From NCBI GenBank assembly GCA_963843575.1, contig CAWJKZ010000017.1, forward strand, positions 260,734 through 324,733: a stretch of 64,000 nt of DNA, written 5' to 3'. This stretch comes from an uncultured Acidobacteriota bacterium. Its GTDB lineage: Bacteria > Acidobacteriota > UBA6911. Both the position numbers and the translations under genes were made by a program. Shown here piece by piece: positions 16,477 to 46,721 of the stretch (its first letter is position 1; each line of letters begins with the position of its first letter). Below the pieces are notes generated by a model. The model was not told the DNA's origin, ran no database searches, and was given only the letters and a program-made list of their open reading frames with translations.

Positions 16477-16551
16477 TGGTCCTGCCTCCTGGACGCCGAT
16501 TAACGCGGAATTCCCGGGGGAATCCGTGGTTTGTCCGTTCGCGGTTTCATG

Positions 16552-17427
16552 TCAGACCAGGAGCCGGTACCCGGGATCCAGTTTCTGGTATCCGATCAGG
16601 ATCTCGTGGATGTTGTAGGGGTGGGTTTCTTCACCGCTCAGCGTGTTGCCCACGACCTGAAACACGTGTTCGATCCCTTGGGCGTCGTCGATGTCCACAT
16701 CCGCCATGAACTCCAGCGTCTCCGGTTTGCTGAAGAATGTGACCTGCAGGTTTCCGTAGCGCTCCATCGTCTTGAAGCTGTCTGCCAGGCAGAATCCGGG
16801 TGGGGGAACGTGCAGGGTTCCCGGAACTTCATGGAACAGATCCGCGGCGATGCTGTTCTTGACCTCATCGCGCAGCTCCTTTTCGACACGCGCGAAAAAA
16901 CGGTCGCCTCGAATGCGAGTCAGGCTGGCCACAAAGGAAAAAGCGTCACGCCCGTTGGGAAACCGGGTCGCCTTCATCCTGGAGTAGATATTCAGAAGCC
17001 CGGCCTTGCGCAGGTCGTCCAGCGCGGAATAGAGTGCCGGCCCGGCGAGGTCCCCGGTTCCCTCGACGACCGACCGCGCGAGAACCTGCTGCAGGTCCGC
17101 GGCGCAGGACGCGTAATCAGGAAACTCCGCCTTGATGACACGTCGGGGGTCCACGGGCAGCGTGATGGCGTAACGAACGGTCTTCCCCTCGCTGACCTGC
17201 ACGAAGCGGCTCACCGGAAGGTGGCGCATCGGAAAGACGCCCACGCGGTAGCAACCGTTGGGCGGGCATTCCAGGTCCCGGATACGCAGCCTTTTTGTTG
17301 CCTGCACATCTCTTGCCTGGGTCACGTTGCCGAGCAACGTGTGGGTCAGCGAGACATCCAGCCGGTCGTCCGGCCGCTCTCCGTTCACATCTGCGAAATC
17401 CAACAGCAAGTCGCCTTTGTTGGTCAT
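16552..17427 (-). CDS. Hypothetical protein (beta-sandwich N-terminus, His/Asp-rich C-terminal domain)
   Basis: ATG 17427 after AGAGGGA; sits in an operon between the GMC and lipase genes. Motifs SFKT-x3-GNLQVTF, ADVDIDDAQG-x2-H, THPYNIHE. Confidence 0.75.
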   Translation of the reverse strand: MTNKGDLLLDFADVNGERPDDRLDVSLTHTLLGNVTQARDVQATKRLRIRDLECPPNGCYRVGVFPMRHLPVSRFVQVSEGKTVRYAITLPVDPRRVIKAEFPDYASCAADLQQVLARSVVEGTGDLAGPALYSALDDLRKAGLLNIYSRMKATRFPNGRDAFSFVASLTRIRGDRFFARVEKELRDEVKNSIAADLFHEVPGTLHVPPPGFCLADSFKTMERYGNLQVTFFSKPETLEFMADVDIDDAQGIEHVFQVVGNTLSGEETHPYNIHEILIGYQKLDPGYRLLV

Positions 17428-17503
17428 CGATCCCTCTGCGATCGGCGGCACGCTTCGATCGGGAAGCACGGCCCTGAGTCGCCGCAAACGGCCGCCGCCT
17501 TAC

Positions 17504-24155: not shown

Positions 24156-25646
24156 ATGCCACGAACAGATGTGGAGCCTGAAGGCGCGCCCGCCGCCGCG
24201 GCCGGACTCATGACGCCGCCGACCGGCGGCGCGAAAATAAGGATGTACCGGCACGGGTTGGGCGACTGTTTTCTCCTGGCCTTCCCTGCCCGCGCCGGCC
24301 GGCCGTTTTATTTTCTGGTCGATTGCGGCGTCATCCTCGGGACGCCCGACGCTTCCCGCAAAATGCAGGATGTGGTGCGAGACATTGCCGCGGCCACCGG
24401 CGGACGAATCGACGTCGCCGCCGCCACCCACGAACATTGGGATCACATTTCCGGGTTCGCCCAGGCAGCCGAAATCTTCCAGCGAGATCTCAAAATCGGT
24501 CAGGTCTGGCTTGCCTGGACGGAGGACAAGTCAAACCCGCTGGCCCGGAAACTGATCGCAGACCGCCACCGAAAGGTCGAGGCTCTCCGGGGCTTGGTGC
24601 AACACCTCCAAGCCGCGGAATCCCCGGTTGCCGGGCACGTCACTCGCCTGCTGGATTTCTTTGGCGGCCTGGGAGCCACCAGCACGGGGGACGCACTGGA
24701 TGCCGTGCGCGGTTACTCCGAGCAGCCCCTCCGATACTGTCGGCCCGCCGACCCGCCCGCCGCTTTCGGCGATGTTCCCGGTCTCCGCACCTACGTGCTC
24801 GGCCCGCCGGAGGATGAACAGCTGCTGAACCGGGACCTCCCCACCAAGACCGGCAGGGAAACGTATGATGACAGCTCCGTCCCGCTGAACCTGGAAAACG
24901 CATTTCTTGCCGCCGCTCTGCACCGGGACCTCGGGTCTGAACCTGGAATCGTGGAGCGCGAACTGCAGGAACTCAGCCTGCCATTTGACCGCTCGCTGCA
25001 GATCCCCGTCCGCGACGCGAAACGGCTGTCCTTCTTCCGCAGGTACTACTTCGGCTCGGGACGGGCCCACGATCTGGCGTGGCGGCAGATCGACAACGAC
25101 TGGCTCAATGCGGCGGATCAGATCGCGCTGAAGCTTGACAGCGACACGAACAACACCAGCCTAGTCCTGGCGTTCGAGCTGACCGTAAGCGGGAGGGTAT
25201 TGCTCTTCGCTGCCGACGCGCAGGTCGGGAACTGGCTCTCCTGGGGCGGCTTGACCTGGAAACTCACCACCGGCGAGTCTGCAGGCCTGGACGTGACGGC
25301 CCAGGACCTGCTGGCCCGCACTGTCCTCTACAAAGTGGGTCACCACGGGAGCCACAACGCCACCCTGCGGGCCGGGGGCCTCGAGCTGATGCGCAGTCCG
25401 GATCTCATGGCGCTGATCCCCGTAGACTCCGCCGTGGCCCAAAAGAAGAAATGGGATATGCCGTTCCCACCCCTGGTCAACCGTCTTCGCGAGAAGACGT
25501 CCGACCGGATCCTGAGAAGTGACGACGCGGTTGCGCTCGCCCGCCGACAGGTGCCCGAGGACGCCACCGCTCTAATGTGGAGCCGCTTTCAGAAGAGCGT
25601 CGTCGAAACGGACCTCTACTTCGAAATCACAATCGCCGACTCATGA
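24156..25646 (+). CDS. MBL-fold metallo-hydrolase (ComEC/Rec2-like)
   Basis: GLGDCFLL, LVDCG, THEHWDH, NNTSLV, LFAADAQ, KVGHHGSHNAT; 7 bp after the peptidase stop, with a GGAG RBS. Confidence 0.88.
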   Translation: MPRTDVEPEGAPAAAAGLMTPPTGGAKIRMYRHGLGDCFLLAFPARAGRPFYFLVDCGVILGTPDASRKMQDVVRDIAAATGGRIDVAAATHEHWDHISGFAQAAEIFQRDLKIGQVWLAWTEDKSNPLARKLIADRHRKVEALRGLVQHLQAAESPVAGHVTRLLDFFGGLGATSTGDALDAVRGYSEQPLRYCRPADPPAAFGDVPGLRTYVLGPPEDEQLLNRDLPTKTGRETYDDSSVPLNLENAFLAAALHRDLGSEPGIVERELQELSLPFDRSLQIPVRDAKRLSFFRRYYFGSGRAHDLAWRQIDNDWLNAADQIALKLDSDTNNTSLVLAFELTVSGRVLLFAADAQVGNWLSWGGLTWKLTTGESAGLDVTAQDLLARTVLYKVGHHGSHNATLRAGGLELMRSPDLMALIPVDSAVAQKKKWDMPFPPLVNRLREKTSDRILRSDDAVALARRQVPEDATALMWSRFQKSVVETDLYFEITIADS

Positions 25647-25668: not shown

Positions 25669-26532
25669 CTACCCGACGCGGCCCGTGGCGGCGCGGGTTT
25701 CGATCGTGAGGGGTTTCTGGCGCTCGAACGCCCTGTCGGCGGCTCCCGCGCGGAAGAAGTTCGGCGACTGCCATGGCGGCATGCTTCTGCGGATCTTCGC
25801 GTAGAGATCCCCGTAATTCCGGAGCTTGCCCTTGTTCCACACCGACAGAAGGGTGGCCGTGAACAGCCCGTTCTTGTCGCCATCCGACGACAGCTGGTTG
25901 TCCTGGCAGCCCGAGATCAGCAGGATGGAAGCATTGACCGATACACGCTCGCCATCCGGAGAGTACCTCTGGATGTCGTCGTACAGCTTCTGGTTTGCCC
26001 TGTACGTCCTTTCCTGAACGTCGAGCGGCAGGGCTTTGAATCGGGGGCCGATCGGCGCGGGCGCAGGCGCCGAGCCCAGTGCCGCGCTCATCCTGTTGTA
26101 GAGTTCGCGCACCACGCTGCCGCTGTGGCAGCTGTCCGAGAGCACGAAGATCCGCACTCCCGGATCGAATTCCGAAAAGAGCGCATAGAGCTCGTCGTCA
26201 ATCAGCTGCCTGTCATACAGAACCCAGGTTTCGTCCCTGCCGTCCGGCTCGTCGCCGTTGGTGTCGGGCACCTGCCCCCCGTGCCCGGAGTAGGTCACGA
26301 ACAGCATGTCGCCGTGATCAAGCTCGCGGGCCGCTTTGCGGAGCGCCCCGGTAACGTTCTCGGCGGTGGCTTGTTCCGTGAGCATCTGCTGCGCGAGGTA
26401 TCCCTTCGCCTTGGCGATGGTGTTCATGTCGCGGGCATCGGCCTCGCAAGCCGCCAGCTGCCCGTCCCAGCCTTCGTAATGCGCCGGGTCCACACGATTG
26501 AGCCCAATGTGAATGGATATTCCTTTAGCCAT
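25669..26532 (-). CDS. Metacaspase (peptidase C14, caspase family)
   Basis: IHIGLN, LAACEADA, YSGHGGQ (His), LSDSCHSG (Cys), ISGCQDNQ, GLFT, QSP; ATG 26532 after GGAGAAG. Confidence 0.93.
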   Translation of the reverse strand: MAKGISIHIGLNRVDPAHYEGWDGQLAACEADARDMNTIAKAKGYLAQQMLTEQATAENVTGALRKAARELDHGDMLFVTYSGHGGQVPDTNGDEPDGRDETWVLYDRQLIDDELYALFSEFDPGVRIFVLSDSCHSGSVVRELYNRMSAALGSAPAPAPIGPRFKALPLDVQERTYRANQKLYDDIQRYSPDGERVSVNASILLISGCQDNQLSSDGDKNGLFTATLLSVWNKGKLRNYGDLYAKIRRSMPPWQSPNFFRAGAADRAFERQKPLTIETRAATGRVG

Positions 26533-26645
26533 GTTTTTGCTTCTCCCGAGGATCTTGTCTTTAGCAAGTTTGGGAATGGGCGTGGCACCCGCACACGCCG
26601 GATTAATCTGATGAGAATACACGGCTCGGTCCGTGTCAAGGGTTT

Positions 26646-26709
26646 TGGAGTGCGGCGACTCGCCGCCGCAATGTCGCGATTCGGGGTGGCGCCGAGGCGC
26701 CGCACTCCA
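26646..26709. repeat. REP-like palindrome (GGAGTGCGGCG...CGCCGCACTCC type)
   Basis: 12-bp inverted repeat TGGAGTGCGGCG / CGCCGCACTCCA with inner hairpins, between the CHAT and metacaspase genes. Confidence 0.6.
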
Positions 26710-26720
26710 GATTGCCAACT

Positions 26721-29700
26721 TCAGGAGATCGCCTGCCGCAGTGCCGCCAGTGCGGCCACGAGGGGGCGCCGGTGCGTCGCATCGGCCCCGGCCTGCGCCA
26801 TCTTTTCCAGGAAAGCGATATCTTCCGTCACGTTGCACGCCGGGCTGCCCTGCTGGACAGCGGCGAGATAGCCGGCCCGGATTTCCGCCCCCGCCTGTTC
26901 GGAAATGGCCTGTTGCCGCAGGCAGCTCAGCAGCCGGTGATCGGCAGCCAGCCGCAGGCTCCAGGGCTCGTCGGCGTTTTGCCCCACGCCCGCGAGCCGT
27001 TCGAGATCCTCGAGTCCTCTTCCGATCCTTTCGAGGCGTTGATCGTATGTTTCCCGGTCGCTGCCGCGTGCCGGTTTCCGCCAGCCCAGGACAATCTCCG
27101 CCACGAGCTGATCCTTCAGGTACAGGCCGCGCGCGCTCATGGGCGCAGCGTCCTCCCGAAACGCTTCACGGTAGCTGCTTGCCATAATCTCCAGGTGCTT
27201 GCGACAGCTTGCCGGATTCCGGGCGAGCGTCGCCCGCAGTTTGCCGAGGCGGCCCCTGAGGGAATGACGTTCCCGTGTTTCCCTGACGAGGCTCAAGCCG
27301 TCCAGGAGGCGGCTCGCCTTTTCCAGGAGGATCCCAGGTTTGTGGCGCAGTTCCTGGTCGGCCGCACTTTCCGATACGGAATCCAGCCGGGCTATCAGTT
27401 GGGCAGCCCAGCGCACTTCCAGAGCCGCCATCCGGTCGAGCGAGTCCACGGGGGCATCGGCCGGCTCGCAGGTTCTTGCCAACTCGTAGTAGCGCAAACC
27501 CTCTTCGAACATGTCCAGCTCGAAGCAGGCATCGCCGAGGGCCGCGCAGGTCGTGGCCGCGGCGAGCCAATGCCGGGGAACAGATTTCACCACGGCCGCC
27601 AGGCGCTGGCGCGACGATTTCTGCCCGGAGAGCCCGGCGCTGCGGGACGACTGCACCAGATCCTCGAGCTCGCCCAGGAGCTCGGCTGGGGCCACGATGC
27701 GGTTGCTGCGCGGGGTCCGGGACGCGGCCGCCGCCCCTGTGTTCAACGAGAAATCCGGGTCGCCGTAACACTGGTACGCTCCCCAGGTGTTCGTGGCGCC
27801 GAAGCGAAGATGGATTTCCTCCCGAGCGAGGCGCACGGCCTCCCCGAAGGCGCGGCCTTCCAGGAGCTCGCAGTAGAACGTGGCGGCAAAGGCGCCGGCC
27901 GCCGCGTCGTCGACGGCCCAACCGGCCGCCACCACGCAGCGCACACCGATCCGAATGAGTTGGGTTGCGATGTTCGCCGCAAGTCGGTGGTACTGGACAG
28001 CATCCTGCTGGGCTTCACCCCTGGTCTGCCCCAGGTGGCAGCAATTCACGAACACCACGTCGGGTACGAAGCGCATCTGCTCGATTTCGGCAGGGGTGAG
28101 AAACAACCCATCGCCGAGGACGATCCCACTCACGGTTTCGCCGGGGACCGCACCATTGCTCACCGGGAATTGGAACACGCCGTGCCCGGCCACGTGCAGG
28201 ATGCGATAAGGCCGGGAGTACAACGCGGTCAGAATGGACTGGGCGGTTGCCTCCTCCCCGGCCAGCTCGACCGTTTCGGCATAGCCGTGATCGCGGAGTT
28301 GCCGGGCTACTGCCCGCGCTTCCGCCTCGGCGCCCGGGAGCGGAGCGTACTTTCCGGATTTGTCGCTTCTGGTAGGGTCCCCCACCACCAGCGCGGTGTA
28401 GCGGGTCGCCTGCAGTACCTTCTCACGAAACACCGGCACCGCCAGCTGCCTTACCATGCCGGCCTCCACGGACAGCGGCCTCGCACCGGCGCAGAACCGG
28501 TCCTGCATCAGCTCCCAGGGGTAGGCTGCCGACTGTTCGTCGAGCACGAGCACCAGGTTGCGCCGGTCCGGGGCGTGCTCCTTCAACAGGTTCGGCACCA
28601 GGAGTTCGAAGAGCGTGCAGCCCAGATCGGCGTCGCCGCCCGTCGAGGCGACCGCGCGTTCGAGGAAACTCTCAACCAGCCTGCGCTGGGTCGGCTGCAG
28701 GTAGCTCTCGGCTCGTGCCCGCTCGGTGAGCCCTTCAAACTTCAGCGCGCCGTCTTCCTGGACCGAGATCCGCATCCGTTGCCACCACCCGGGTTCCTCA
28801 TCGTAATAAGCGCGCTTCCGCCCGTCCGCACTCCCGACGACCAACTCCTCTATTTGAAAACGGTCGCGGAACTCGGCCGACCGCCCCAGATCCAGCAGGG
28901 CCTTGACCGCCTGTATCGCACGGTCCTGCCACAACTCGATGATGTCCAGCTGATCGATGAACGCGGTGAGCTTCGACGCCCCATCTGGGGCTCCCGGCGC
29001 GCCGCCGCGGCTGGCAGGCTTTTTGGTCTGCAGCGACTGAAGGTGCTGGTTGGCCTGGGTCACCCCTCGCAGGATGGACTGCAGCGAGTCTGTAACCGTC
29101 AGGCCTGCGCCGCCCGTCCCGATGAGCAGCGCCGCCATCGCCGCACTTATGCGGCCCTCCCCATCTGGGGCCTGCGGAGCCTGCCGGCGCCCGGCGCGCT
29201 CGCTGTCGATCAGGCCCATGGCGTATGCCGTTGCGGCGCGTGAGAAGCTCCCCGCGAGCCCGCCCGGCGTCAGGCTGCCGACCGTGCCGAGCCCGACCAC
29301 AATAGCTCCGGGGTGGGCCCCGCTCCTGCGGCGCCCCTCCTCGTTCAGGAAGACGGCGCTGGTGTTTAGTTCGCCCGGGTAAAGGTCCAGCCGCTGCATC
29401 TCGCGGAGGCGGTTGTCGAGCTGCCAGTCGAGGTACGCTTCCGCGCTGACGATGGTGTCCCCGCAATAATGGCCGACCACGACGGGATAAGCCGCCCGGC
29501 TCAGGTTCCCGTGCACCACCCGCACCCGGACCCTGGGATTGGGCTCGGCTGCTCTGCGATGGCGCGTGGACCCGAGGGCCGATGCGACGAGGTCCTCCTC
29601 GTCCGGGTAGAAGGCGGGAGCCTCGACCGGCAACTCGAAGGTCTCACCGGAGGCGCCGCGGAGGGCCGGTGGGGTCTGTGGCAGCTTGGTCGTGACCCCG

Positions 29701-32138
29701 ACATTGAGCAGGTCCAGGAGGGCCGGGAAAGCGGCGGAAGTGTTGGCGAGATCGCCGTGTTCGACATCCATGTAGTAGGTCTTGCTCTTCAAATCGGACG
29801 GAACGCCGGTCGCCCACGGGACCCGTCCATCGCCCTGGGCGGTGGCATGCACGACGACGCGGTGACCTTGGGGAGCGGACGTGTCGATGGTTACGTCGCA
29901 GGGGGTGGCCGCAGCGCAGCCCGCCACATAGATCATCCGATCCGGATCTATGGGGCTCGCGTGCAGCAGGTCCCGGACCCTCGCCGCCTCGGCCAGGTGC
30001 GTGGCCTCGGGGACAGGCCACTCGGATTGCGAGCCGTTCTGCTGCAGGACACGCCAGGTCGCAGCGTCGTAGGCGTCGAGCGAGCCTTCGTGCGGCAGCA
30101 TCTGCAGCACCCCCGCAAATGCGGAAAAGAACTCGAGCAGCTCGCCACATCCGTGTCTGATGTCGACCAGCGCAAGCTTGCGCACCAGCGCGTCACGCCC
30201 CATCAGCATGGCTGTGATTGCGTGCGAGCCTCCGTTCGGAGTGCCCAGCATTATGAAACGGGCGCCCGGGTGCCGGCACATGCGTTCCCAGACTTTCCAC
30301 CCTTCCGGCGTCGCCAGCATCGCACGCACCGCCAGTCCTCCCATCGCGTGGGCGATAATTCGGACCGGTTGGCTGCCGGCTTCGGCCTTCGCGAGCTTTT
30401 CCTCGATGCGGAGCCGCAACGCCTCCGCCGTTTCACAGACCGATTGGCGCCAATCGTACGCGAAGGGAACGACCTCGTGGGTTTGGGCGAGGAAGCGCAC
30501 GAGCTCTCTGTAGCTGCCGGCGACGAGCCCGTCCGGGCTGACATTCCGCCCGCCCGCCTGCAGATCGCGCAAACCGCCCGACGCAAGACTGCAGATGTCG
30601 AGCCAGACCCTGGATTTGCCAGCTTTCAGGTGACTTCCCATCAGTCCCGGCAACACGAATACGACCGGCTGGGAATCCACCGCGCGCTTCCTGTAATCAT
30701 CCTCCGTGACTTCGTAGGGAGGCTTTTCCAGGAGGTGATAGGAGTCCTGATCCGCGGCGGCCAGGCCGCCGAGCAGCCGGCTGGCCGTGTCGTCATTCCT
30801 GAAATAGCTGAAATGGTCCACCTTCGAGCCGGTGTCTATCCAATAGCGGATGCCGGCGGTCCTGCTGGCGCCGCCGAACATGGACGGCGTGTTGACCACC
30901 AGGTCATGGTCCTCCCGATAGAACAGGTCGGTGACCAGGGCCTTGAGCCGGCTCCACATCCCCTCTCCCGCCAGGTCGCCTCCCAGGACGTGAAGGTCCG
31001 CCCCGGTGTCGAGCCCGGGGCGGTTCAGCACCCGGATCAGCGGGGCTTCCGGCATCATCGCCTCCAGTCCCGGCAACTCACGTGGGTCGGTCCGGTTTTT
31101 GACCACCGCGAGCAGAAGCGCCGAGACGGCGTCGAACACGGGATTGGCCCTCATGCCGGGCGCCCGTTCGAGGACGTTCACCACGATCGACAGGAAACGA
31201 TCGAGCCGGCCGCCGGCGAGCGTGGTGCCCCTCGTGGGGCAGGCAACCCGAATGAAGCGTTCCACCCGCAACTGCCGTGAAGCGAGGATGTCCTGCAACT
31301 GCTGAAGCGCAGCGCGATCGCGCTGCCGGCCGGGGCCGTCGAAAAGTTTCAGCTCCGTCTCTTCGAAAGGAGCGCGGCCAACCAGCATTCCGCGGCAGAG
31401 GAGCTCGCCGACAAGCCCGCCGCGGGAATGCGAAACCAGGTGCAGCCTGGCGCCGTTTGGAAGGGCCTTTGCCAGTTCCAGCGCATTTTCAATCGGGCTC
31501 TCCGTCAATGTGCGGTGCTGAAATGCAAGCACCCGGCCCTCGTAGAGTTTGAGGAGGTCCGAGATACGGGCGTGAGGCGCGTTTTCCCACAGCCCGCCGA
31601 AGCTCCCCCCCGTCGTGGATGCCGTCCCATGGATGAACACCAGCAGGGGCTGGTCGGCCGGCGCCAGTTCGACCGGGCTCAGGTCGTCGGGGCTTGCGCC
31701 GCCGCAGCGGTAGAGGCCGGCTCCCGGCTTGAGGACACTCTCGACTTTTTCCCGGATCAGATCCGTGATTTCAGACGGCATGTCGACGCCGAGTATCTTC
31801 AGACCCTTGATCACCCACTGGCCGACACCGCGGCTGGGAGTGCCAAGGGGGAGGACCTGCGGGATTTCGAAACTGTCCGCAGCCGGACCCCGCCGCGTCC
31901 ACCCAGCCAGGTCGCCCTTCAGATCGTCGGCACGCGTCCACAGCCGGATTCCTCCGTCCAGCTCCAGTTCAACGAGGTCATCGTCGGCGACATCCACGGT
32001 GCGCGGCGCGCTTGCGGACCGGTCCATCGCGATTTGAACGCCGTACTTCGGCCGGATGGTCCCGGGGCCAAGCGCCCGGGCAAGGTCCGTGTTCTCGGGT
32101 GTGGAATCGACTTTTCCGTAAAAAGAGAGTGTGGGCAT
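26721..32138 (-). CDS. 1805-aa multidomain protein: two alpha/beta-hydrolase domains, M17-N/macro-like domain, CHAT protease, TPR-like tail
   Basis: FIHGT...SHSRGG (hydrolase 1); LPGLMGS, YDWR, AHAMGG, GDGRV, EHGDL (hydrolase 2); VVHGNL...VVGHY...GAIVVGLG; [44 protein letters not shown]. Confidence 0.9.
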
Positions 32139-32390: not shown

Positions 32391-33629
32391 TTGGACATCA
32401 AGAGCTTTCTCGAGCAGCTGCCTGCAGCCGCAAGCTCTCCGCTCGCCCTCGGGTCCTACGCGCTGGTGCTTGCCGCCTGGATCGTGGTCGTCTGGCTGCG
32501 CCAGAAACCGCAGCGCGAGGCGCGCCGAATACTCGAGCAATACAAGGACGACGATAAGCGCAATAAGGCGCTGGCATCGCTGCTCGGAACGGCGCCTCCG
32601 GAAGGCCTTGCGCGCCGGGAGATTCTCGAGTGGGTGAAACTGAAGTCCGCCGATTCGACCCGGACCTATCTTCTTATTGCGTATCTCGCGACGCTGGCGG
32701 CCCTGCTGATCATCGCGGTGTCGGCCCTGTTCAAGCCCGGAGTGGCTTCACCGGCAGACGTCAAGGTGACACTGCACGGGGTGGGAGGACCTGCCGATTG
32801 CCCGCCGCTCCCGTTCTCCACGGAATTGGTGGTTTCGGTAAACGGCAAGCCGCAGGCGCGGGTCCCGGTAAGCGGCTGCGAGGTCGAAGTACCGGCAACG
32901 GCCGGTTTGCGCCCCGGGACCGCGGCTACCGTATCGCTCGACAATTCCGGCCCTTTCCAGGTCGCGGCCCCGGCGGCGAAGTACGAATTCGGCTCCGGCA
33001 AATGGTATGTCGCCGTGGGCACGCAGGCGAACGGCCCGCGTCTGATCGTCCACCTCTTCAAATACGGCGGCGCATCGGAGCTGCCGGAACGCCGCGTGAA
33101 GTTCGATCAGTTCTCCACCATCATCCGCCAGAAGATCCAGGACCTCGGGCAGGAACTGGCCTCGCAGAACGAGGCCTGCGCATACCTGACTGGCCTAACG
33201 GTGGTGCGCTCCGACCGTGAGCTCGATTTCAGCCCGCGCGATACGCTTGAGTACTGGAAGAAATCCAACTCGCTCCAGATCCTCTCCGGTCTTCTGGACC
33301 AGCGCGGCGGCGGGTTTTTCGTACGAAGCCGCCCATACTTCGGCGAGCTCGCGGCAGGCAGTCCGGCAGAACGCGTGGAACTCGAGCTCAACATCGATGC
33401 GGAGGAGTTGGGCAAAACGCTCGACAGCCACTCGCTCGCGCTGCTATACGCCCTGGCGTCGGACGCCAGGCGGCGCAACCTGCCGTCCGAGGTCGTCTTC
33501 ATTTACCTCGCGCGGGCGGTCTCGATCGCCCGCGAGCTCGACGCGTCGGTCGCCGGCGCTTCCGGCCTCAAACGGGCAATCCGCGATCTGTTCCGAAGCA
33601 TGGGCCGCCCAGAACCACTAGAGCTCTGA
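32391..33629 (+). CDS. Hypothetical membrane protein (2 TMs, extracytoplasmic beta and alpha/beta domains)
   Basis: TTG start; hydrophobic stretches LALGSYALVLAAWIVVVWL and YLLIAYLATLAALLIIAVSALF; stop 1 bp before the next ATG. Confidence 0.7.
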   Translation: MDIKSFLEQLPAAASSPLALGSYALVLAAWIVVVWLRQKPQREARRILEQYKDDDKRNKALASLLGTAPPEGLARREILEWVKLKSADSTRTYLLIAYLATLAALLIIAVSALFKPGVASPADVKVTLHGVGGPADCPPLPFSTELVVSVNGKPQARVPVSGCEVEVPATAGLRPGTAATVSLDNSGPFQVAAPAAKYEFGSGKWYVAVGTQANGPRLIVHLFKYGGASELPERRVKFDQFSTIIRQKIQDLGQELASQNEACAYLTGLTVVRSDRELDFSPRDTLEYWKKSNSLQILSGLLDQRGGGFFVRSRPYFGELAAGSPAERVELELNIDAEELGKTLDSHSLALLYALASDARRRNLPSEVVFIYLARAVSIARELDASVAGASGLKRAIRDLFRSMGRPEPLEL

Positions 33630-33630
33630 T

Positions 33631-34680
33631 ATGACTTTCCTGCGCGCAGCCGTTTTTACCGTCGCCATGGCTGTGCCCGTAATGGGGCAGGAAGTCGGCC
33701 TCCTGGTGGCGCCTTTCGAAGGGCCGGGCAACCTGGGGGCTCGCACGGCGACGGTTCTCAACCTTCAGGTGTGGCAGACTCTGCGCGCCGCTCCGCACCC
33801 GAACCCACACGGTCTCAATTTCGGGAGTGGAACGGTTTACTTCATGCCGGAAGGCTCAATGCCTGTGCGCAGTCACATCGAGGCCGAGCGAGCCGCCGAC
33901 GGGCAAGCCCAAGCCGTTCTGTGGGGGCGCGCCCAGCCTTACGGCGACGGCGTCGTCGTCCAGGCGTACCTCTCGGTGCCGCGGGCGACCTCGCCGGGCC
34001 ACCCCGGAGGAACCGCCATCTGGAAGATTGCGCTTCCCGACGGGCAGAGCATCTCGGTCGATATCCCGGCCTGGCGTTATGAGTTCGCGCCGATCGTGCT
34101 CAGGACCGAAGCCGTGTTGCAGCTGAACACCCCCGAGGGACTGAAGCTCTACAGGTCCCCGCAGTCGAGCGAAGTGCTCGGGTCCGTAGGCAGCCGGTTC
34201 CGCGCGCTGGAGCAGAGCCCGAACGGCGCGAAAGTGGAGTCCGCGGGAATCACCGGTTGGGTGCGCCTGCCGCAGCTGTCGCGCAATCGAAGTGAAGTGG
34301 TCGACTTCACCGGGGCACTCGTCCGCATCTTCCGGAAGGACTGGGGCGGAGCCCTGGAACTGTTCAGCCGCGTCGTCGGCAGCCAGACCGCGCCGGCGAC
34401 CATCAAGGCTTACTCGCTGCTGATGATGGCAGCGGCATCCGAGCAGGTGAGCCATCAGACAGGGCAAGCCTCGCGTGCGGTGGAATTCGTGAACCAATCG
34501 TACCGGCTGAACCCGTATCTGCAAGCGACGGTCCGGTACAAGTGCATGGCGCACCTGGAGGACATGGCCCGCACGACATCCGCGAAGCGGCAACTCGCCG
34601 AAACGGTCGCGCGCAACGAGTATCTCTTCCCGAAGACGGACAGATGGATCGGCAAGGTGAAAGCGGTGCTCGCGAGATGA
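33631..34680 (+). CDS. Secreted hypothetical protein (TolB-N/CsgG-like, SH3b-like, TPR-like)
   Basis: Signal peptide MTFLRAAVFTVAMAVPVMG; LLVAPF...AQAVLWG; LKLYRSP...GITGWV SH3-like segment; helical C-terminus. Confidence 0.65.
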   Translation: MTFLRAAVFTVAMAVPVMGQEVGLLVAPFEGPGNLGARTATVLNLQVWQTLRAAPHPNPHGLNFGSGTVYFMPEGSMPVRSHIEAERAADGQAQAVLWGRAQPYGDGVVVQAYLSVPRATSPGHPGGTAIWKIALPDGQSISVDIPAWRYEFAPIVLRTEAVLQLNTPEGLKLYRSPQSSEVLGSVGSRFRALEQSPNGAKVESAGITGWVRLPQLSRNRSEVVDFTGALVRIFRKDWGGALELFSRVVGSQTAPATIKAYSLLMMAAASEQVSHQTGQASRAVEFVNQSYRLNPYLQATVRYKCMAHLEDMARTTSAKRQLAETVARNEYLFPKTDRWIGKVKAVLAR

Positions 34681-34864: not shown

Positions 34865-34910
34865 CGAGTACTTAGTTCTACGAACCACTACCCTACCTTG
34901 GAGGAGCTTC

Positions 34911-37886
34911 ATGCCTAGCCTCTCGCTCAAGAGAACAGACCTCCCGTTTCTGCTCGGCGGCAACGGGGAAGTCTCCGTCGATTCGGGTGACCTGCAACTG
35001 GGTCGGCCAATCAACGAGGCAAGCCCGGCCCTGCTCAACGTCCGTTTCGCGGCGCAGGGAAGCGACAAAGTGGCTCTGGGCCAGCCCGACACCGTCAAGG
35101 TCGCGGTCTCTACCGCGGAGACTCTCAATTTGACCGCTATCTTCCCGGGCTCGACCGGCCCCGCAGCCAAACTGGCCGGGACCTGCGGGCTGAGCGACTT
35201 CTTCGAGAACGGCGAGAACGCCGACAAGCTCATCCTCGCTCTGGATACCGGAGCCTCGGCCGGCGTTTCCGCGGCGGGGTCGTTCGCGTATTCGGCGCTG
35301 AAGACCACCGTCGAAGTGAACGCGGGTATCGACGGGGGGTACTCGTACTTGCGGGCTTTCGACAAGTCGCTGCCGGTCCGACAGGTCCTGATCGATTTCT
35401 TCAGAACAATGAGGCTTCCCGAACAGGTCAATACCCAACCGGAGGCGGGCGAGGCGATTTCGTTGCGCTTCGGCGGCTACCTGCGGATGGCGGCAGAAGC
35501 CTCCGCAGGCTATCGGCTCGCCGGCACCCGGTCCACCTCGCTCGGGCACATGGCGCTTTCGGAAAAGTACAATCTGAGCGTCCTAGGCAAGATCGGGCTG
35601 GCGGCCGGAATCGCGGGTCATTTCTCGGTTCTGGTGACGGCAGCGCCCGGATTGCCGGGCTGGGCACGGGTCCAGGTTCACCGGGAACACTCCGGCGATT
35701 TCAAGGTGGCCGCCGACGTGAACGTGGGATACAAGAACCAGCTGGACGGCCTGCCCTCCAGTGCGGACGAGTTCCTCGGCGCGGTGCTCGGCGTCAATGC
35801 CAAGAATTTCCTGAACGTGCTGCAGAAGGCTCACGAGCTCTCCGACTTCGAGAAGTTCAAAGGCGCCGTCGACGGCCTCGCCCGGAAATATGTCAGCGAG
35901 TTCATCGGCGAGGGCTTCGAGAAACTCGGATCCGAACCCAGGTTTAATGCCTTTCTCGCACGCGTCCACGCCGTGGTGAACAGCTACGAGGAAGTCGAAG
36001 ACCGCGCCGTTACGTTGTTTGACCGGTTTTTCCACAACCTCCCGGACTTGACCTCGTTTCTCGAGAAGATCCAGGGCCTGGCACCGGGCACGGTGCAGTC
36101 GTTGAGGAACAACCTCAGCCCCCAACTGTGGAACATACTGTCGCAGCTTACGGACGGGGACCCGCTCGGTTTCCTGCTGGAGCAGGTCGTCGTGGAGGGC
36201 AAAAGGGTCGATAGCCTGGCCGAGTTGAAACAACGCGCCGCCACGTCGCTCGACCTCGTCAGGAACGACGCCCACGCCGAGATCCGCAACGCCATCGCCC
36301 TTGCGAAGCAGGCATTCGGCGTGGACGGATTCTTCCGCGAGCTGGCCAAGCTCGACACGGTCGACGAGCTCCAGGCGCTGGCGAATGACAAGGTAGGGCA
36401 ATTCGTGACCCGGCTGGTCGGCCGAACGCTGGATTCGGCGACAAATCTCAAGGAGGCGTTCAAGCAGGTGAAGGCGGTCCTCGACCGGGCCGACGACTTC
36501 AAAGAGAAGCTCTACAAGGGTTTCAAGGAGGCGTCCAGGAGCTCCTACCAGGTCGCCCTGAGCGCGGCATACAGCCATGCTTCCGAGGACGACGCGCTGA
36601 TTGATCTCCTGGTCAACGTGTCCGATCGTCGGGGCGCCGACCTGCTCGCCCAGGCCGGCAGGGGTGATTTCGAACAAATCCTGACCACGTCCGACGCCGG
36701 GCTGGTACGGCTGCTCGAGGGCGTGTTCACCCACCAAGTGCGCCGCGAGCACTCGTGGAAGGTCAACATTCTCGGCTGGCACCTGAACTACGAATACGAG
36801 GGCTTCGACCGCGTCATCACCGAAACCGAACAACGGCTGATTCCGTCCGACCAGGGCCTCACAGTGCTCACGACTGCGGATCTCACCGTCGAAAGAATGC
36901 GCAAACGCAACGATGAACAGACGCACGTCAATTTCCTGCTGCGAGCGTTGGGGGAGTCCGCCCGGGCGCTCAGGTCGGAGAGAGCGGACTCCGCTTATTT
37001 CATCGAGGCACTCGAGTCGACGACGGCGCGTTATCAGTTGAGCTTTACGGACGAGGACACCTCGACGGCCGAACTGCGCGACTACCTGGCGTTTGCCGCC
37101 GACGTGCAACTCGACGCCGAGGGCGCCACCCTCGAGGCGCTGAAGCCATTTCTCCCCCAGGCCCAGAACGGCGGTTTCGGGAAGGTCGAAACCCGCTACG
37201 ACATCCGCTTCGGCCCAAAGGCCGTAAACGCGCTGCTGTCGGTGAAGCAGCTTTCGGCTGCCGGAGAGGCCGCGGTCCGGAACGCGATGCGTCAGATGGT
37301 TCTCTCGAACTATCTGAAAAACCAGGAGCAGCACGACGTTGCGTTTGCCTATGCTTCCCCGGGAGTGTTTGACATCTTCTCCAGGGAAGGCTTTGCGGAG
37401 TTCGGAAATCACTCCCGGCGTGTCTTCGCCGTCAAGCTGTCGAATCCCGGGATTGCGGCCCCTTCGCAGGTGGCGCTGGATCGTATGAAAATCGCCGTCT
37501 TGACGACGCTGTACAACATTGAGAACTCGATGATCCAGGCCATCAAAGACTTGTACAAGCTGCTCGGAGCCGGGGAGGCGATGGATCCCCGCGAGTTTGA
37601 AAAGAAGCTCGCCAGGTTCGGCAGCGCGATGAACGATTTTGACGCGTTCGATCAAACCACGAACAGGAACGGGTGCGGTACCAGCACGATCTTTGCCATG
37701 TTCGATGTGCTGGTGCGCCTTGCATCCGCCGGCGACCCCGCCAACACGGCGATGCTGCGGGTGAGGAGCGAGGCGAATGGCAAAGAGGTGGAGAAGATCT
37801 TCCTGTCGCGCGAGGCGGCAAACACGGTCCTGACGACCGCGGATCCCGCGCCGCGTCGTGCCCGCATTCGTCGCGCAGGATCCTGA
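34911..37886 (+). CDS. 991-aa hypothetical protein (beta-rich, helical, beta-rich)
   Basis: ATG after GGAGGAG; long intact ORF; no signal peptide and no recognisable catalytic motif. Confidence 0.85.
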   Translation: MPSLSLKRTDLPFLLGGNGEVSVDSGDLQLGRPINEASPALLNVRFAAQGSDKVALGQPDTVKVAVSTAETLNLTAIFPGSTGPAAKLAGTCGLSDFFENGENADKLILALDTGASAGVSAAGSFAYSALKTTVEVNAGIDGGYSYLRAFDKSLPVRQVLIDFFRTMRLPEQVNTQPEAGEAISLRFGGYLRMAAEASAGYRLAGTRSTSLGHMALSEKYNLSVLGKIGLAAGIAGHFSVLVTAAPGLPGWARVQVHREHSGDFKVAADVNVGYKNQLDGLPSSADEFLGAVLGVNAKNFLNVLQKAHELSDFEKFKGAVDGLARKYVSEFIGEGFEKLGSEPRFNAFLARVHAVVNSYEEVEDRAVTLFDRFFHNLPDLTSFLEKIQGLAPGTVQSLRNNLSPQLWNILSQLTDGDPLGFLLEQVVVEGKRVDSLAELKQRAATSLDLVRNDAHAEIRNAIALAKQAFGVDGFFRELAKLDTVDELQALANDKVGQFVTRLVGRTLDSATNLKEAFKQVKAVLDRADDFKEKLYKGFKEASRSSYQVALSAAYSHASEDDALIDLLVNVSDRRGADLLAQAGRGDFEQILTTSDAGLVRLLEGVFTHQVRREHSWKVNILGWHLNYEYEGFDRVITETEQRLIPSDQGLTVLTTADLTVERMRKRNDEQTHVNFLLRALGESARALRSERADSAYFIEALESTTARYQLSFTDEDTSTAELRDYLAFAADVQLDAEGATLEALKPFLPQAQNGGFGKVETRYDIRFGPKAVNALLSVKQLSAAGEAAVRNAMRQMVLSNYLKNQEQHDVAFAYASPGVFDIFSREGFAEFGNHSRRVFAVKLSNPGIAAPSQVALDRMKIAVLTTLYNIENSMIQAIKDLYKLLGAGEAMDPREFEKKLARFGSAMNDFDAFDQTTNRNGCGTSTIFAMFDVLVRLASAGDPANTAMLRVRSEANGKEVEKIFLSREAANTVLTTADPAPRRARIRRAGS

Positions 37887-37905: not shown

Positions 37906-38322
37906 TCAGTTCTGGATCAGAATCCGCGGGTCCTGCACGCAGACGACGTTCCCGTCCTGTTTCAACGTGATGTTGTACTTGTACTCCGATCCCGGATTCG
38001 CGGAGTCGGCGGCAGGCCCGCTGGTGCAGCGTTTCGCGTCCTGGCAGCTGAAATTATCGAATGGGCTTCCTTGCGGGAACTCGATGGTAAAGGTGTAGTT
38101 GCCGGTCGCAACCCAGGTGACCGCGTGCTTGGCGCCTTTCGATATGGGGGCGGCGTCGCAGTCGGCCAATTGCTCGCACTCCTTGATCTTCCCGATCCGT
38201 ATGGTGTGGTTGCCGACCTGGTTGCACGGGGCCTGGGCCTCGGACGTTTGAGACAGGAGTGTCACGGCACAAGCCAAGACGGCCACCGTGAACGTGTTGC
38301 GGCGGAGTGGTGATCTGCTCAT
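37906..38322 (-). CDS. Small secreted Cys-containing beta protein ending in a DP motif
   Basis: ATG overlaps the kinase TGA (ATGA) after AAGGAAGGA. Signal peptide, 6 Cys in the mature part, YKYNITL...QDPRILIQN. Confidence 0.75.
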   Translation of the reverse strand: MSRSPLRRNTFTVAVLACAVTLLSQTSEAQAPCNQVGNHTIRIGKIKECEQLADCDAAPISKGAKHAVTWVATGNYTFTIEFPQGSPFDNFSCQDAKRCTSGPAADSANPGSEYKYNITLKQDGNVVCVQDPRILIQN

Positions 38323-40904
38323 GGTTCCTTCCTTGATTCGGTTGTGAGCTGGATGGCCTGTTTGAACGCTGGTTCGGCCCGCAGGCTTTCGAACTCGGGG
38401 TCCCTTTCGAGGAACACCTTCGGGTACCCCTTCCGCACAGCGAGCATCAGCCAGGCGAGGGCTTCGCTTTTCCTGTGCGCAAGGCCGGCCACGACGGCGG
38501 CGTCGTGAAGCAGTTCCGGGTTCCCGGGGTTGGCGGCAAGCGCCTGCTGGATGTGCTTTTGCGCCTCGCCGACTCTGCCCGTCTTCGCCAGGGCTGCCGC
38601 GAGAAGCGAACGAACTTCGCCGGCCCCGGGGTTGAGCCGCAGTTCGCCCTCGCACAGCTCGATCGCCTTCGCGTAAGCCTGGGCAGCGCGCGGGGCCCGG
38701 CCCTTCGCCCACCTGCAGGCATCGCCGAGGTTCGCCCAGAGTTCGTAATTTTCCGGCGTCAACCGCAGCGCGGCTTCATACGCCTCCGCCGCGAGCTCGA
38801 ATCGGCCGCTGAAGTAGTTCAGGGTCCCGATGTTCGAATACGCCAGCGGCGTCGGCGACAGCGCCAGCGAGCGGTTGTACGCTTCAAGGGCCCGGGGAAG
38901 GTCGCCGTTGAGCTGGTAGGCCGCTCCGAGGTTCCCGAAAGCCCGGGCGTTGTCCGGGCAGAGTCCCGTGACGCGGACAAACATCCGGATCGCCGCCGGG
39001 TAATCGCCCGCGCCGAAGTGGTACCCCGCGAGCTTGCTGTACCCTCCCCAGTACGAGGGCTGCAGATCGATCGCGCGCCGGCAGGTCGCGACGGCTTCAC
39101 TCGTGTTCCCAAGCGCGTTCTGCGCGTCGGCAAGGCCGAGCAGCGCCGGGTAGCTGTTCGGTTGCTGCGCGAGCACCCGCTCGAAAATGCGGGCGGCTTC
39201 CCGAGCCTCGCCGGTGAGGACCTGAAGCTCGCCGAGCGTGATGTCCACGTCGGGGTTGTCGGGATTGAGCTGCTGGGCGCGGCGGCAGGCGGCGATCGCT
39301 TCCTCGGCAGACTTGCGGTCGCGGGTCAAACGGAACCGGGTCAGGTAGGCGCGGGCGAGGGCAGCCTGGACGATGGGAACGTCGGGCCTTTCCGCCGCCA
39401 GCGCCGCGAGTTCCCTGATCCCCTCCTGGACGGATGCTTCGCGGTCGTACCGCTGCAGCCGCCCGATGGCCGTGACATACCGCGCCTGCTCCGCGGCGGT
39501 CTCGAGACCCTTCCACTGAACCGCCGCTGGCCCGTGCCCGACCTTGAGGGCGCCAATCACGTCGTCTACGAGCCGATCCTGCATGCCGAAGAGATCCGAG
39601 GCGGCCCCGTCTATCGTTTTGCCCGCCAGGCGAGTCCGCTGCCCCGAGTTCCAGACCGTGAAGGTGATTCGTATCCGCTCCCCGGTCTGCTGCACCGAAC
39701 CTTGCAGCAGAAGGCTGGCGCCGGCCTTGCCCGCGGCCTGGAACGGCTCGTTGTTTTTGTCGGCGGCGGCGATCGCTTCGGCCGGGGTAACAACCTGGAG
39801 CCCCGGCACCTGCGCCAGGCGCGACGAGAGCGTCTCGACCATCCCGTCGCCCATCAGCTGGCCGGTGGGGGTGCCGCTCAGGTCCTTGAACGGCAGGATC
39901 ATGACGATCTTGGCTGCCGGGATGGCGGCCGCCGCGGGACGGGCGCGCGTCCACCACGAGACGAGGACGGCGAGAACCGCAACGAGCACCGCGGCCGCAA
40001 GGGCCATTCCTGCCACGCGCCACCTGGCTCCGCGGTTCGCCGGGCCGGAGCCGCCGGCGCTCAGGGCGGCGGCTATTGTGCCCTTCAGCTCGGAAACCGA
40101 GGCGGCCCGGGTCCCTGCGTCCTTTTCGAAACAGCGGCGCAGCATGTCCTTTATGACGGGGGGGACGTGCCGAGGCAGCGCATCCCATTCCGGCTCACCG
40201 ACGAGGATTGCGGCAATTCGGTCCGAAAGGGTCGCCCCGGGGAAGGCGCGCCGGCCGGACAGCATTTCGAAGAGCACGCATCCGAATGCCCAGACATCCG
40301 TGCGGTTGTCGCTCGACTGCCCGCGCGCCTGCTCCGGGCTCATGTATCCGAAAGTGCCAACGACGGTGCCGGGGGCCGTCGCGTCCGCCGAAAAAGTGGC
40401 GGAGCCAGGCGGTTCCGACAGGAGTTCGAAGTCTTTTGCGAGCCCGAAATCCAGGATCTTGACCATCCCCCCGGGAGTGATCATGACGTTGGCCGGCTTG
40501 AGGTCCCGGTGCACGATGCCGCGGCTGTGCGCCGCCTCGAGCGCCCCTGCAATCTGCAGCGCGTATTCGAGCGCCCGGCGGACGGGCAGCGGGCCGCCGG
40601 CCAGCCTCTCCATCAGGGTCTCGCCGGGGACGAGTTCCAGAACCATGAAGCGGTAATTACCGGATTCCTGCACGTCATAGATGGACGCGATGTTCGGGTG
40701 ATTCAGCGAGGCCAGGAGCCGTGCTTCTTTGTCGAGGCGCGCCAGGCGGCTCGGATCCGTGAGCAGCGCCTGGGGCAGGACCTTCACGGCCACCTCGCGG
40801 CCGAGCCGGGGATCGGCGGCGCGATACACCTCTCCCATGCCGCCCGCGCCGAGCGGACCGATGATTTCGTAAGCCCCGAGCCGAGTTCCCGGAACAAGAC
40901 CCAT
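38319..40904 (-). CDS. Ser/Thr protein kinase with TM, TolB-N/FlgO-like and TPR domains
   Basis: GAGGMGEVY, VAVK, HRDLKPAN, DFGLAK, GTFGYMSPEQ; TM helix; ILPFKDLSG; many TPRs. Confidence 0.95.
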   Translation of the reverse strand: MGLVPGTRLGAYEIIGPLGAGGMGEVYRAADPRLGREVAVKVLPQALLTDPSRLARLDKEARLLASLNHPNIASIYDVQESGNYRFMVLELVPGETLMERLAGGPLPVRRALEYALQIAGALEAAHSRGIVHRDLKPANVMITPGGMVKILDFGLAKDFELLSEPPGSATFSADATAPGTVVGTFGYMSPEQARGQSSDNRTDVWAFGCVLFEMLSGRRAFPGATLSDRIAAILVGEPEWDALPRHVPPVIKDMLRRCFEKDAGTRAASVSELKGTIAAALSAGGSGPANRGARWRVAGMALAAAVLVAVLAVLVSWWTRARPAAAAIPAAKIVMILPFKDLSGTPTGQLMGDGMVETLSSRLAQVPGLQVVTPAEAIAAADKNNEPFQAAGKAGASLLLQGSVQQTGERIRITFTVWNSGQRTRLAGKTIDGAASDLFGMQDRLVDDVIGALKVGHGPAAVQWKGLETAAEQARYVTAIGRLQRYDREASVQEGIRELAALAAERPDVPIVQAALARAYLTRFRLTRDRKSAEEAIAACRRAQQLNPDNPDVDITLGELQVLTGEAREAARIFERVLAQQPNSYPALLGLADAQNALGNTSEAVATCRRAIDLQPSYWGGYSKLAGYHFGAGDYPAAIRMFVRVTGLCPDNARAFGNLGAAYQLNGDLPRALEAYNRSLALSPTPLAYSNIGTLNYFSGRFELAAEAYEAALRLTPENYELWANLGDACRWAKGRAPRAAQAYAKAIELCEGELRLNPGAGEVRSLLAAALAKTGRVGEAQKHIQQALAANPGNPELLHDAAVVAGLAHRKSEALAWLMLAVRKGYPKVFLERDPEFESLRAEPAFKQAIQLTTESRKEP

Positions 40905-41026
40905 AAGGGCGGCGCCAGCATTCCCTTGGCTGAGACAATTTGTGGACGAGCCAATCACACCTGATCTTGCTCCAAATAGTACAACGTACGGGGTCAACTT
41001 CAAGTCTTCGTGACTCGTCCTGTTAA

Positions 41027-43165: not shown

Positions 43166-44681
43166 ATGCGAAAATTCGGCGCCAACTCAACGCTTTCGGC
43201 GAGCAGAGTTGCGGGATTTATTCTTATCGCGCCGCTGCTGCTGTCTCAGTCGCCTGTAGCACCACTCATGAGCGTCGTCGATCTGAACGCGGGGCAACCC
43301 GAGGAGGTGAAGCTGCATAACGGCGCCAGCGCGCGGGTCGAGTTGCTGGAACGCACGGAGATCTGCGACAACGTGCGCGGCGCCGTGCGGAACGCCCGCG
43401 CTCGAGTGAAGGTGAACGGGCGGGAAGTCCGACTCGACTGCGGCAACTACAACTTGCCGGTTGCCGTCGCGGGCGTCCAGGTCGACTGCGCGGTGACAAA
43501 GGGGTTCCTCGGCAACTCGCGCGACAACCCGTGGGGTCTTGCCAAGGACGCGAGGCTGCGACTGTGGCCTGCGGGTTCCGCGTTCATGGCTTCAGGCACT
43601 TATGTCTATCCGGTGAAGCAACGATGGTTCGCTACGACTACACAGATGGCGAACCAGCCGTCTTTCGTGGACGGCTCGGAGACGCCGTGGGGCCGGAGGA
43701 TTTACTATCACTACGGTCTCGACACCGGGGGCGCGGAAGGACTGACCGAGGTCGTGTCGGCGACCAGGGGGCTGGTGGTGGTCCGCGGCCAGAGTGCCAT
43801 GCCGGGGTACGAGAAGAATCCCTGCACCGAAGTAAGCTACGACGGCGTGATCGTCCTGGACGAACGCGGCTGGTATCACTGGTACTTCCACCTGTTCTCC
43901 ATCGACCCGGGCGTGAAACTCGGCGAGGCAGTCGCCACCGGCCAGCGCATAGGGCTTGTCGGCAAGGAAGGCAGCGCGGGCTGCTGGTCTCACCTTCATT
44001 ATGAGATTCGCGGGCCTCAGCCTTCCGGGAAGGCAGGCATCGTGGAGGGCTATGCCTTCCTCTGGGAAGCGTACCAGAGGCAATACGGGCCGGATGTCGT
44101 CGCGGTGGCTCGTCCCCACTCCTACGCCTGGGTGGGTGAAACAGTCACCTTGGATGGAACGCGCTCCTGGAGCCGCTCGGGACGGATCGTCCGGTACGAG
44201 TGGACTTTTGGCGACGGCTCGAAGGCGGGCGGCCCGACCGTAAGCCGCATGTACGGGAAGCCCGGGACGTACAGCGAGATTCTCAAGGTTACGGACAGAC
44301 CGCGGCCACAGCGCCTACGATTTCGCCGTCGTTCAGATTGCAGGCAAGCAGGTCTCCGAACAACAGGACGAGGCAAGCCTGGCTCCTACCATTCATGCCT
44401 CGTACTGGCCGACACTCGATGTGCTCGCCGGGCAGCCCGTCACCTTTCTGGTCCGCACGTGCCGGACGACACACGGCCAGGAGACCTGGGACTTTGGCGA
44501 CGGCTCCGAGCCGGTGACGGTGAAATCGGACGGATGTACGAACGAGAAAGCCAAGGAAGGCTACGCCCGCACGCAGCATGTTTTCCGGCAACCCGGCGAC
44601 TATCTCGTGAAAGTGGAGCGTGCGAACGAACGCGGCGAGAAGGCGACCGCCCACCTGTGGGTTCCCGTGCGCAAGTCCTGA
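43166..44681 (+). CDS. M23 peptidase-like plus two PKD domains, secreted (frameshift near 44300)
   Basis: HYGLD and SHLHYE M23 motifs; WTFGDG and WDFGDG PKD motifs, the second PKD in a shifted frame ending at 44681. Confidence 0.8.
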
Positions 44682-45200
44682 AGGAAGTGGCCCAGGGACT
44701 TCCGCCCTCCCCTGCCGAGATGCCGGTTCCCGGCGATGCGCTGCAGAGGCGCTCGATTACCTGAAAACCGGCGCGCTCGCCTCGGTCCCCCTGTTCCTCC
44801 GGCTTCTCCCCCGGGTGCGCGGTGTCAGCCCTCCTCGTATCCCCACTTGGCCGGATCCGCATGACCCGTGTAGTTGAATTCATCCGACCAGACCAGTTTC
44901 CAGCCGGGAATCTCGGGAGCCTGCGCACAGGCCAACTTCGTTCCGAACAGCGATAGGAATACAACCGCAAGGAGTCGGGGCATCAGGTTCCCTTTCTGCG
45001 GCTTTTCTTGCGAACTTCACTGTATTGCTGCCTCCCGGAGGGCGTCAATCGAAATGAAACTAAAGCACCGGTTCCGCCAGAAGTTTTTCTCACAGACAAC
45101 TGCGATTCCGCGAGAAGTCCGGGGACAGGGGACGTATGATGGCAGACAACTTCCGTCGACAAGCTCTCACCGTCATCTGCCTTGCAAGGAGGCGAATCCG

Positions 45201-46691: not shown

Positions 46692-46721
46692 CCCGCGCCG
46701 GGACTCTGAACATGAGGGCCT

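Follow-up and report, generated by a model that had tools for sequence, protein, structure and literature searches.

Pepco and EACC1 are described, in the excerpted text of PMC12642450, as non-enzymatic proteins that are encoded beside cysteine or serine proteases and form beta-strand membrane pores once cleaved; Pepco measures 117 aa, and EACC1 is cleaved to pieces of 5.7 and 7.1 kDa. The excerpt of PMC10847048 describes the Tc toxin of Yersinia entomophaga, a large toxin that is released by holin/endolysin (type 10) secretion. Together with bacterial gasdermins and phage holin-endolysin cassettes, these were the systems with which we compared open reading frame (ORF) X, a gene of 991 codons with an ATG start at 34911..37886 on the forward strand of a 64,000-nucleotide stretch of DNA from an uncultured Acidobacteriota bacterium (contig CAWJKZ010000017.1), the whole of which is called the window here. 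X belongs to an unannotated family of ~970-aa proteins that has no known domains and a patchy distribution, that yields a confident structural model, and that recurs with partner genes which often overlap it by ATGA. We tentatively propose, as a reading that is possible rather than probable, that X permeabilises membranes as the constant core of a module for cell-envelope lysis or cell death and has a new fold. It would then act on the membrane of its own cell and not on other cells, perhaps upon a proteolytic trigger.

Like bacterial gasdermins, X is a beta-rich, putatively cytoplasmic protein without a signal peptide, it has a Peptidase_C14 (C14) or CHAT gene adjoining at some loci, and cell death through membrane damage is a plausible outcome of its action. 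Unlike gasdermins, it is ~4x larger, carries neither an N-terminal cysteine nor a conserved C-terminal inhibitory tail, gives no match to the sequence models, and is linked to proteases at only a minority of its loci. The ATGA coupling of X to signal-less PG_binding_1 lysozyme-like enzymes resembles a phage holin-endolysin cassette. However, holins are small and have transmembrane (TM) helices, which X with its 991 aa lacks, and the X loci are not prophages; homologues were absent from 50,697 phage records and 72,556 plasmids. X is also far larger than Pepco and EACC1 as the excerpt presents them, and most X loci are without a protease. With the Tc toxin, as far as the excerpted account goes, X shares its large size, the absence of a signal peptide, and a location near genes for endolysin-like and membrane proteins, but X is related to Tc components neither in sequence nor in fold, and its hydrolase gene overlaps X instead of sitting in a separate cassette.

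An earlier, sequence-only reading of the window had called X an orphan. This label did not survive a word-indexed search, which gave 116 clusters (90% identity) at E<=1e-3 among 8000 scored candidates, nearly all of them 960-1000 aa long. When 1.84 billion representatives (50% identity) were searched exhaustively with HMMER, 444 fell at E<=1e-3, of which 164 reached E<=1e-30. The named records of the family were Acidobacteriota (Vicinamibacterales, Bryobacterales, Pyrinomonadaceae, Blastocatellia, and Terriglobia), with two metagenome-assembled genomes labelled Acidimicrobiia. Of the 301 Acidobacteriota genomes sampled, 12 gave a match to the family profile, in 7 cases over most of the profile length, and the 6.7-Mb genome from which X comes carries a single copy of it. 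Weaker profile matches revealed a sister branch of proteins of 1030-1180 aa, which is homologous to the X branch across 901 columns (hhalign probability 99.9%) and just as uncommon, with matches in 7 of 401 genomes, two of which were cross-matches to X-type genes.

No family in Pfam (E<=1), PADLOC (E<=1), or NCBIfam matched X, and the PDB sequences contained no match to X and 0 at E<=10 with the family profile. Ten distant members of the X family and five members of the sister branch were also without a Pfam match above threshold. No stand-alone family corresponding to the N-terminal domain was found, the 16 shorter matches looking like fragments, and no longer fused forms of X were found either, the latter being weak evidence. 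A literature search on the combination of partners described below returned nothing on the family. We conclude that the X family is new to databases and that X is one member of a large, sporadic, unannotated superfamily of soil Acidobacteriota.

The gene itself is preceded by a Shine-Dalgarno-like GGAGGAG (34900..34906, forward strand) 4 nt ahead of its ATG. GC at its third codon positions is 0.81, as is usual for genes of this 62% GC window; a promoter scan found nothing near X. As the sequence-only reading had stated, the N-terminus carries no hydrophobic signal. Hydropathy analysis in 19-residue windows over the whole 991 aa gave no convincing TM helix, and the top Kyte-Doolittle window (1.67, residues 224-242) is a strand in the predicted model. 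AlphaFold gave a poor model with 41 sequences (pLDDT 65.6, pTM 0.39) and a confident one with 125 sequences reaching down to ~21% identity (pLDDT 87.7, pTM 0.86); the secondary structure was taken from DSSP on this deep-alignment model. Residues 1-284 (34911..35762, like all parts of X on the forward strand) are predicted to form an N-terminal beta-rich domain. It contains a Gly/Ala/Ser-rich amphipathic hairpin-like segment at residues 113-142 (35247..35336), with the family consensus F-P-Y-G-P at its tip and, at residues 116-138, the sole internal stretch of the model with a pLDDT below 50, as well as a very long beta-hairpin at residues 182-244 (35454..35642; strands 182-206 and 216-244). 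The domain is followed by an all-helical region at residues 285-556 (35763..36578), which includes a 47-residue helix (510-556) and the conserved motif LTDGDPLGF (412-420), and by a mixed block at residues 557-670 (36579..36920) with the conserved motif GWHLNYxYEGFDRVITETEQR. This block was modelled as long hairpins from the shallow alignment and as short helices and strands from the deep one. An alpha/beta C-terminal region (residues 671-975, 36921..37835) and a disordered, unconserved Arg-rich tail (residues 976-991, 37836..37883) complete the protein. In the 125-sequence alignment, D714, T717, R794, E871, and D932 were nearly invariant.

Several features noted from the letters alone could be recognised in this model. 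The strand segments that had been quoted exist (residues 111-146, 191-242, and 264-274), and the N-terminal domain is enriched in Gly, Ala, and Ser (Gly+Ala+Ser 0.33 for the domain, given as 0.33-0.35 in residues 1-284, vs 0.27 overall). The helical centre that had been noted lies at residues 285-556, and a second block is present at 557-670 but is mixed rather than strand-rich. The proposed alternation of hydrophobic and polar residues in the strands was not borne out in X alone, where 0 windows scored above the cut-off (95th percentile of window maxima in 200 shuffles). A period-2 hydrophobic/polar pattern was conserved family-wide in residues 113-142 and 182-244, as expected for any strand with one buried face.

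Foldseek and VIA comparisons, made with the whole model and not with the N-terminal domain alone, yielded no clear match to a gasdermin, MACPF/CDC, or aerolysin fold, and no Pfam family among the MACPF/CDC, aerolysin/ETX-MTX2, and leukocidin profiles matched X at E<=1. Matches in the ESM Atlas were confined to unnamed Acidobacteriota and Myxococcota clusters, among them an unnamed Myxococcota cluster structurally similar to X, plus outer-membrane barrels at TM ~0.25 (here the structural score). The weak structural echoes of X were all to unrelated folds, and its predicted fold is unmatched in the solved structures searched. A complex prediction with three copies of residues 1-290 scored 0.00, which is evidence neither way.

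We next turn to the genes around X. The neighbourhoods comprised 46 X loci (45 genome loci of the X branch and the window) and 86 sister-branch loci (6 genome and 80 metagenome loci), 132 overall, in which L-numbers label individual loci. Neighbours came from simple ORF picks, and partners were checked by Pfam and some by jackhmmer or BLAST; many sister-branch contigs are short, and partner counts there are lower bounds that are not comparable with background. No neighbour was conserved across all X-family loci, and Pfam scans of 72 upstream, 68 downstream, and 104 sister-branch neighbours returned mostly housekeeping families, each 1-3 times. At least one partner gene of an envelope-attacking type was present at 15 of the 46 X loci and 18 of the 86 sister loci, about a quarter. 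Peptidoglycan (PG) hydrolases with a PG_binding_1 domain were combined with GH46 (L023, L040, L042, and L103 by Pfam; L084/L132 and L122 by jackhmmer), with GH19 (L127, Pfam), with an unknown domain (L105, Pfam), or with M74 (L026, Pfam), and in L018 Pfam placed PG_binding_1 and an Rv2525c-like glycoside hydrolase domain in a fusion to a 3-TM protein. None of the PG_binding_1 hydrolases of L023, L040, L042, L103, L105, and L127 had a signal peptide at its N-terminus. Patatins were found by Pfam in L011 (fused to TPR-S), L026, and L047, and patatin homologues by jackhmmer or BLAST in L048, L049, L061-63, and L116. An unannotated 3-TM protein was encoded directly after X in L004 (12962-14431), L007 (12967-14463), L018 (5031-7865), and L050 (7229-8614), and directly before the X-family gene in L114 (30-1100). 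CHAT genes occurred near X in the window, L003, L014, L037, and L043, C14 genes near the X family in the window, L003, and, in the sister branch, L086-L088, and C11 genes in L037 and L043. Apparent C11 hits by jackhmmer in L068, L070, and L071 were false, as Pfam showed MBG/Ig domains, and a GH19-like ORF in L011 was seen by jackhmmer only and given no family by Pfam.

At six loci the partner gene overlapped the start or stop of X, by ATGA in L042, L040, L023, L105, and L011 and by GTGA in L103; these overlaps involve hydrolases of several catalytic types and both gene orders. On a FastTree phylogeny of 104 full-length rows, the minimum number of partner-state changes was at least 9 for PG hydrolases (11 rows), 4 for patatins (5), 3 for clan CD proteases (6), and 5 for the 3-TM protein (5), and the partner links must therefore have arisen or vanished many times. 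PG_binding_1 lay within 3 kb at 11 of 132 loci, compared to ~0.7 expected by arithmetic from six genomes (2, 1, 8, 3, 6, and 0 matches). CHAT lay within 10 kb at 5 of 132 loci, compared to roughly 1-2.5 expected (2, 16, 1, 6, 1, and 0 genes in six genomes), a modest excess. The genome of X itself carries one C14 gene and four patatin genes, and in five other X-bearing genomes there was no CHAT gene on the same contig as X.

A further gene was seen close to X at four loci. Its product resembles a lipoprotein, measures 250-276 aa, and has a linker rich in Pro and Ala and a Gly-zipper of the YMGG type. The gene ends 23-24 bp ahead of X in L022, L023, and L042, and in L040 it is likewise a close upstream neighbour. 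It co-occurs with the ATGA-coupled GH46 hydrolase in L023, L040, and L042, while the L022 contig stops earlier. The protein may be an immunity or membrane partner.

Several of the partner enzymes cannot reach their substrate without a breach of the inner membrane, and the simplest reading is X as the maker of this breach, in a role like that of a holin or gasdermin. The ATGA coupling of X to signal-less hydrolases suggests that one of the two gives the other its way through the membrane, and the two conserved amphipathic hairpins in the N-terminal domain of a protein without TM helix or signal peptide are in line with such a role. X would be made as a soluble cytoplasmic protein, and a trigger might be sensed or relayed by its ~700-residue helical and alpha/beta remainder, the large C-terminal part acting as sensor or gate. 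The N-terminal beta domain, with the flexible 113-142 hairpin and the long amphipathic 182-244 hairpin, would then engage and permeabilise the inner membrane. This breach by X alone could kill the cell; where signal-less PG_binding_1 hydrolases are present, they could pass through it as an endolysin passes via a holin. Patatins and other lipases would be further finishing partners, and the caspase-like proteases at a few loci, the window included, might serve as triggers or co-effectors.

If this is true, X is a membrane-breaching protein unrelated to holins, gasdermins, and classical pore-forming toxins, it cooperates with endolysin-like enzymes outside phages and so widens the repertoire of regulated bacterial lysis, and it offers an entry point to cell death or predation in the Acidobacteria, a soil phylum that is dominant yet poorly studied. 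A bolder version, to which we give a low probability, is that X founds a new class of executioner, a self-contained sensor-plus-pore of ~1000 residues that works as a soluble, inducible 'giant holin' and licenses signal-less hydrolases, phospholipases, and caspase-like enzymes for regulated lysis in soil Acidobacteria. Whatever the mechanism, there stands a family of >400 clusters with a confident predicted fold that is unmatched among the solved structures searched, together with a testable set of partners and a concrete two-gene cassette of X and its ATGA-coupled hydrolase.

A number of observations weigh against X as a lysis core. The alternation within the strands of the single sequence did not rise above shuffles. 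The long hairpin is modelled at a pLDDT of about 77-97 with a hydrophobic stripe ~2x what a bilayer requires, and such a hairpin, with its overlong stripe, may simply pack on the protein core. No likeness to a known pore-former fold was found by whole-model Foldseek and VIA, in which residues 1-284 were barely weighed. Furthermore, 31 of 46 X loci and 68 of 86 sister loci were without any envelope-attacking partner in the DNA examined, housekeeping genes are the commonest neighbours of the family, and the partners that do occur would fit cargo, scaffold, or sensor roles for X equally well.

The last point leads to other explanations of the same loci. X could be a cytoplasmic sensor, scaffold, or chaperone that does not touch the membrane but holds or activates envelope-degrading effectors, its beta sheet binding protein. 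We regard this as improbable. X is constant beside at least four kinds of interchangeable effector, which is the usual signature of a regulatory core, and a large, multi-domain protein with a confident model and a well-ordered long hairpin, whose partners carry TPR-S domains, would suit the role. However, Pfam and NCBIfam revealed no NTPase or other known signalling domain in X, the signal-less PG hydrolases would still need passage through the membrane while few loci supply a membrane protein, and X stands alone at most loci, where it must act by itself. It is unlikely, in our view, that X is instead a large signal-less toxin, possibly pore-forming, which is directed against prey, competitors, or grazers and freed by lysis-type release, with the 3-TM protein and the PG hydrolases as release machinery and the patatins, lipases, and proteases as co-released weapons. 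A membrane protein and endolysin-like enzymes do recur as partners, large toxins freed via holin/endolysin cassettes have a precedent in the excerpted PMC10847048, and members of the family are restricted to soil Acidobacteriota, with Myxococcota contributing a cluster that looks alike in structure. But the direct ATGA coupling of X and hydrolase better fits a two-part lysis cassette than cargo beside a separate release operon, partners that are Ser/Thr kinases or carry TPR-S sensor domains speak for signalling inside the cell, an immunity-like gene does not occur with any consistency, and the plasmid and phage records searched held no homologue of X. The partners might also merely share variable genome islands with an X of unrelated structural, lipid-handling, or enzymatic function, which we again consider unlikely. 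The predominance of housekeeping neighbours speaks for this, as does the resemblance of X, where there is any, to unrelated folds, and the five nearly invariant residues of the C-terminal region could form an active site. On the other hand, chance sharing of islands does not readily explain start and stop overlaps at six loci, in both gene orders and with hydrolases that differ in catalytic type, nor partners that recur independently on the tree against a low genomic background of PG_binding_1.

The sequence-only reading had cast X as a pore former activated by a protease, and in its strict form a metacaspase or CHAT protease would cut the Arg-rich tail of an inactive, gasdermin-like X and thereby release a beta-barrel pore. 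The proteases are indeed present: C14 and CHAT genes lie upstream of X in the window, in L003 a C14 gene precedes X by 12 bp and a CHAT giant is also within 3 kb, a CHAT giant lies 36 bp downstream in L014, and C14 genes adjoin the sister-branch genes in L086-L088. Protease-activated pore formers of other folds also exist, namely Pepco and EACC1 in the account excerpted from PMC12642450. A clan CD protease, however, was found within 10 kb at just 5 of the 46 X loci and 3 of the 86 loci of the sister branch; close adjacency is above background and far from regular, with an excess of CHAT that is at best modest. The tail exists, as DPAPRRARIRRAGS (residues 978-991), but is private to the window and not conserved in the family. 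The copy in L001, 85% identical to X, ends in SREAAAGAAPF instead, and even the protease-linked copies of L003 and L014 end 6-10 residues past the last conserved strand without an Arg-rich tail; clipping of this tail is therefore rejected as a mechanism of the family. L001 has also lost the CHAT half of the giant and the caspase, and in the window the caspase gene is paired tail to tail with that of an MBL-fold hydrolase. That X is not a canonical gasdermin had been recognised from the start, and 0 matches in Pfam (including PF04598) and PADLOC (bGSDM models) agreed with this. A scan of 201 Acidobacteriota genomes with the Pfam gasdermin model gave no match, but neither did the control, so the scan is uninformative. 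Taken together, gasdermin-like clipping finds little support, and we consider the strict model very unlikely.

The window proteases have plausible substrates besides X, because MBL and alpha/beta hydrolase effectors have already been described: the excerpted text of PMC12642450 reports caspase-linked MBL hydrolases and alpha/beta hydrolases as protease-activated effectors. The caspase-like Peptidase_C14 gene (Pfam) occupies 25669..26838 on the reverse strand upstream of X, its true start being probably internal, near MAKGISIH. Its end is 23 bp from that of the gene for a 496-aa MBL-fold hydrolase (24156..25646, forward strand; HEHWDH at residues 92-97, weak Avs1a/6A-MBL matches). The pair looks like the protease-MBL effector module of that excerpt, and the MBL hydrolase is more likely than X to be the substrate of the caspase. 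The neighbouring CHAT giant (26721..32138, reverse strand, 1805 aa; DUF7379, LCAT-like, and CHAT domains), upstream of X on the opposite strand, is a possible partner of X. Its homologues lie <=3 kb from X in L003 and L014, which makes three gene orders counting the window, while in L001 only the CHAT-less N-terminal half of the giant is found beside X. The L014 giant (2116 aa, 12953-19300, forward strand) adds an N-terminal GH19 lysozyme-like domain, a PGAP1-like lipase match, and a C-terminal TPR-S, and its GH19 and TPR-S domains connect the two partner themes of proteases and hydrolases.

Between the CHAT gene and X lie two unannotated genes on the forward strand, one for a 412-aa protein with two hydrophobic helices (32391..33629) and, 1 bp after it, one for a 349-aa protein with a signal-peptide-like N-terminus (33631..34680). 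Neither had a homologue in the 45 related loci or a family match, and we therefore treat them as unrelated insertions. Downstream and convergent with X is a gene for an 894-aa Ser/Thr kinase with TPR repeats and a sub-threshold TPR-S match (38319..41003, reverse strand). Kinases of the same cluster were present within 10 kb of X at 9 of 46 X loci; Ser/Thr kinases may simply be abundant in the phylum. Across the whole window (1-64000), no tRNA genes or Rfam families at gathering score were detected. GC drops to 0.56 at 10001-12000, compared to 0.60-0.67 nearby. Further downstream, a row of genes on the forward strand (43166-48011) encodes an M23 peptidase with a PKD domain, an unannotated 605-aa protein, and a radical SAM/SPASM enzyme, and may be a peptide-maturation cluster.

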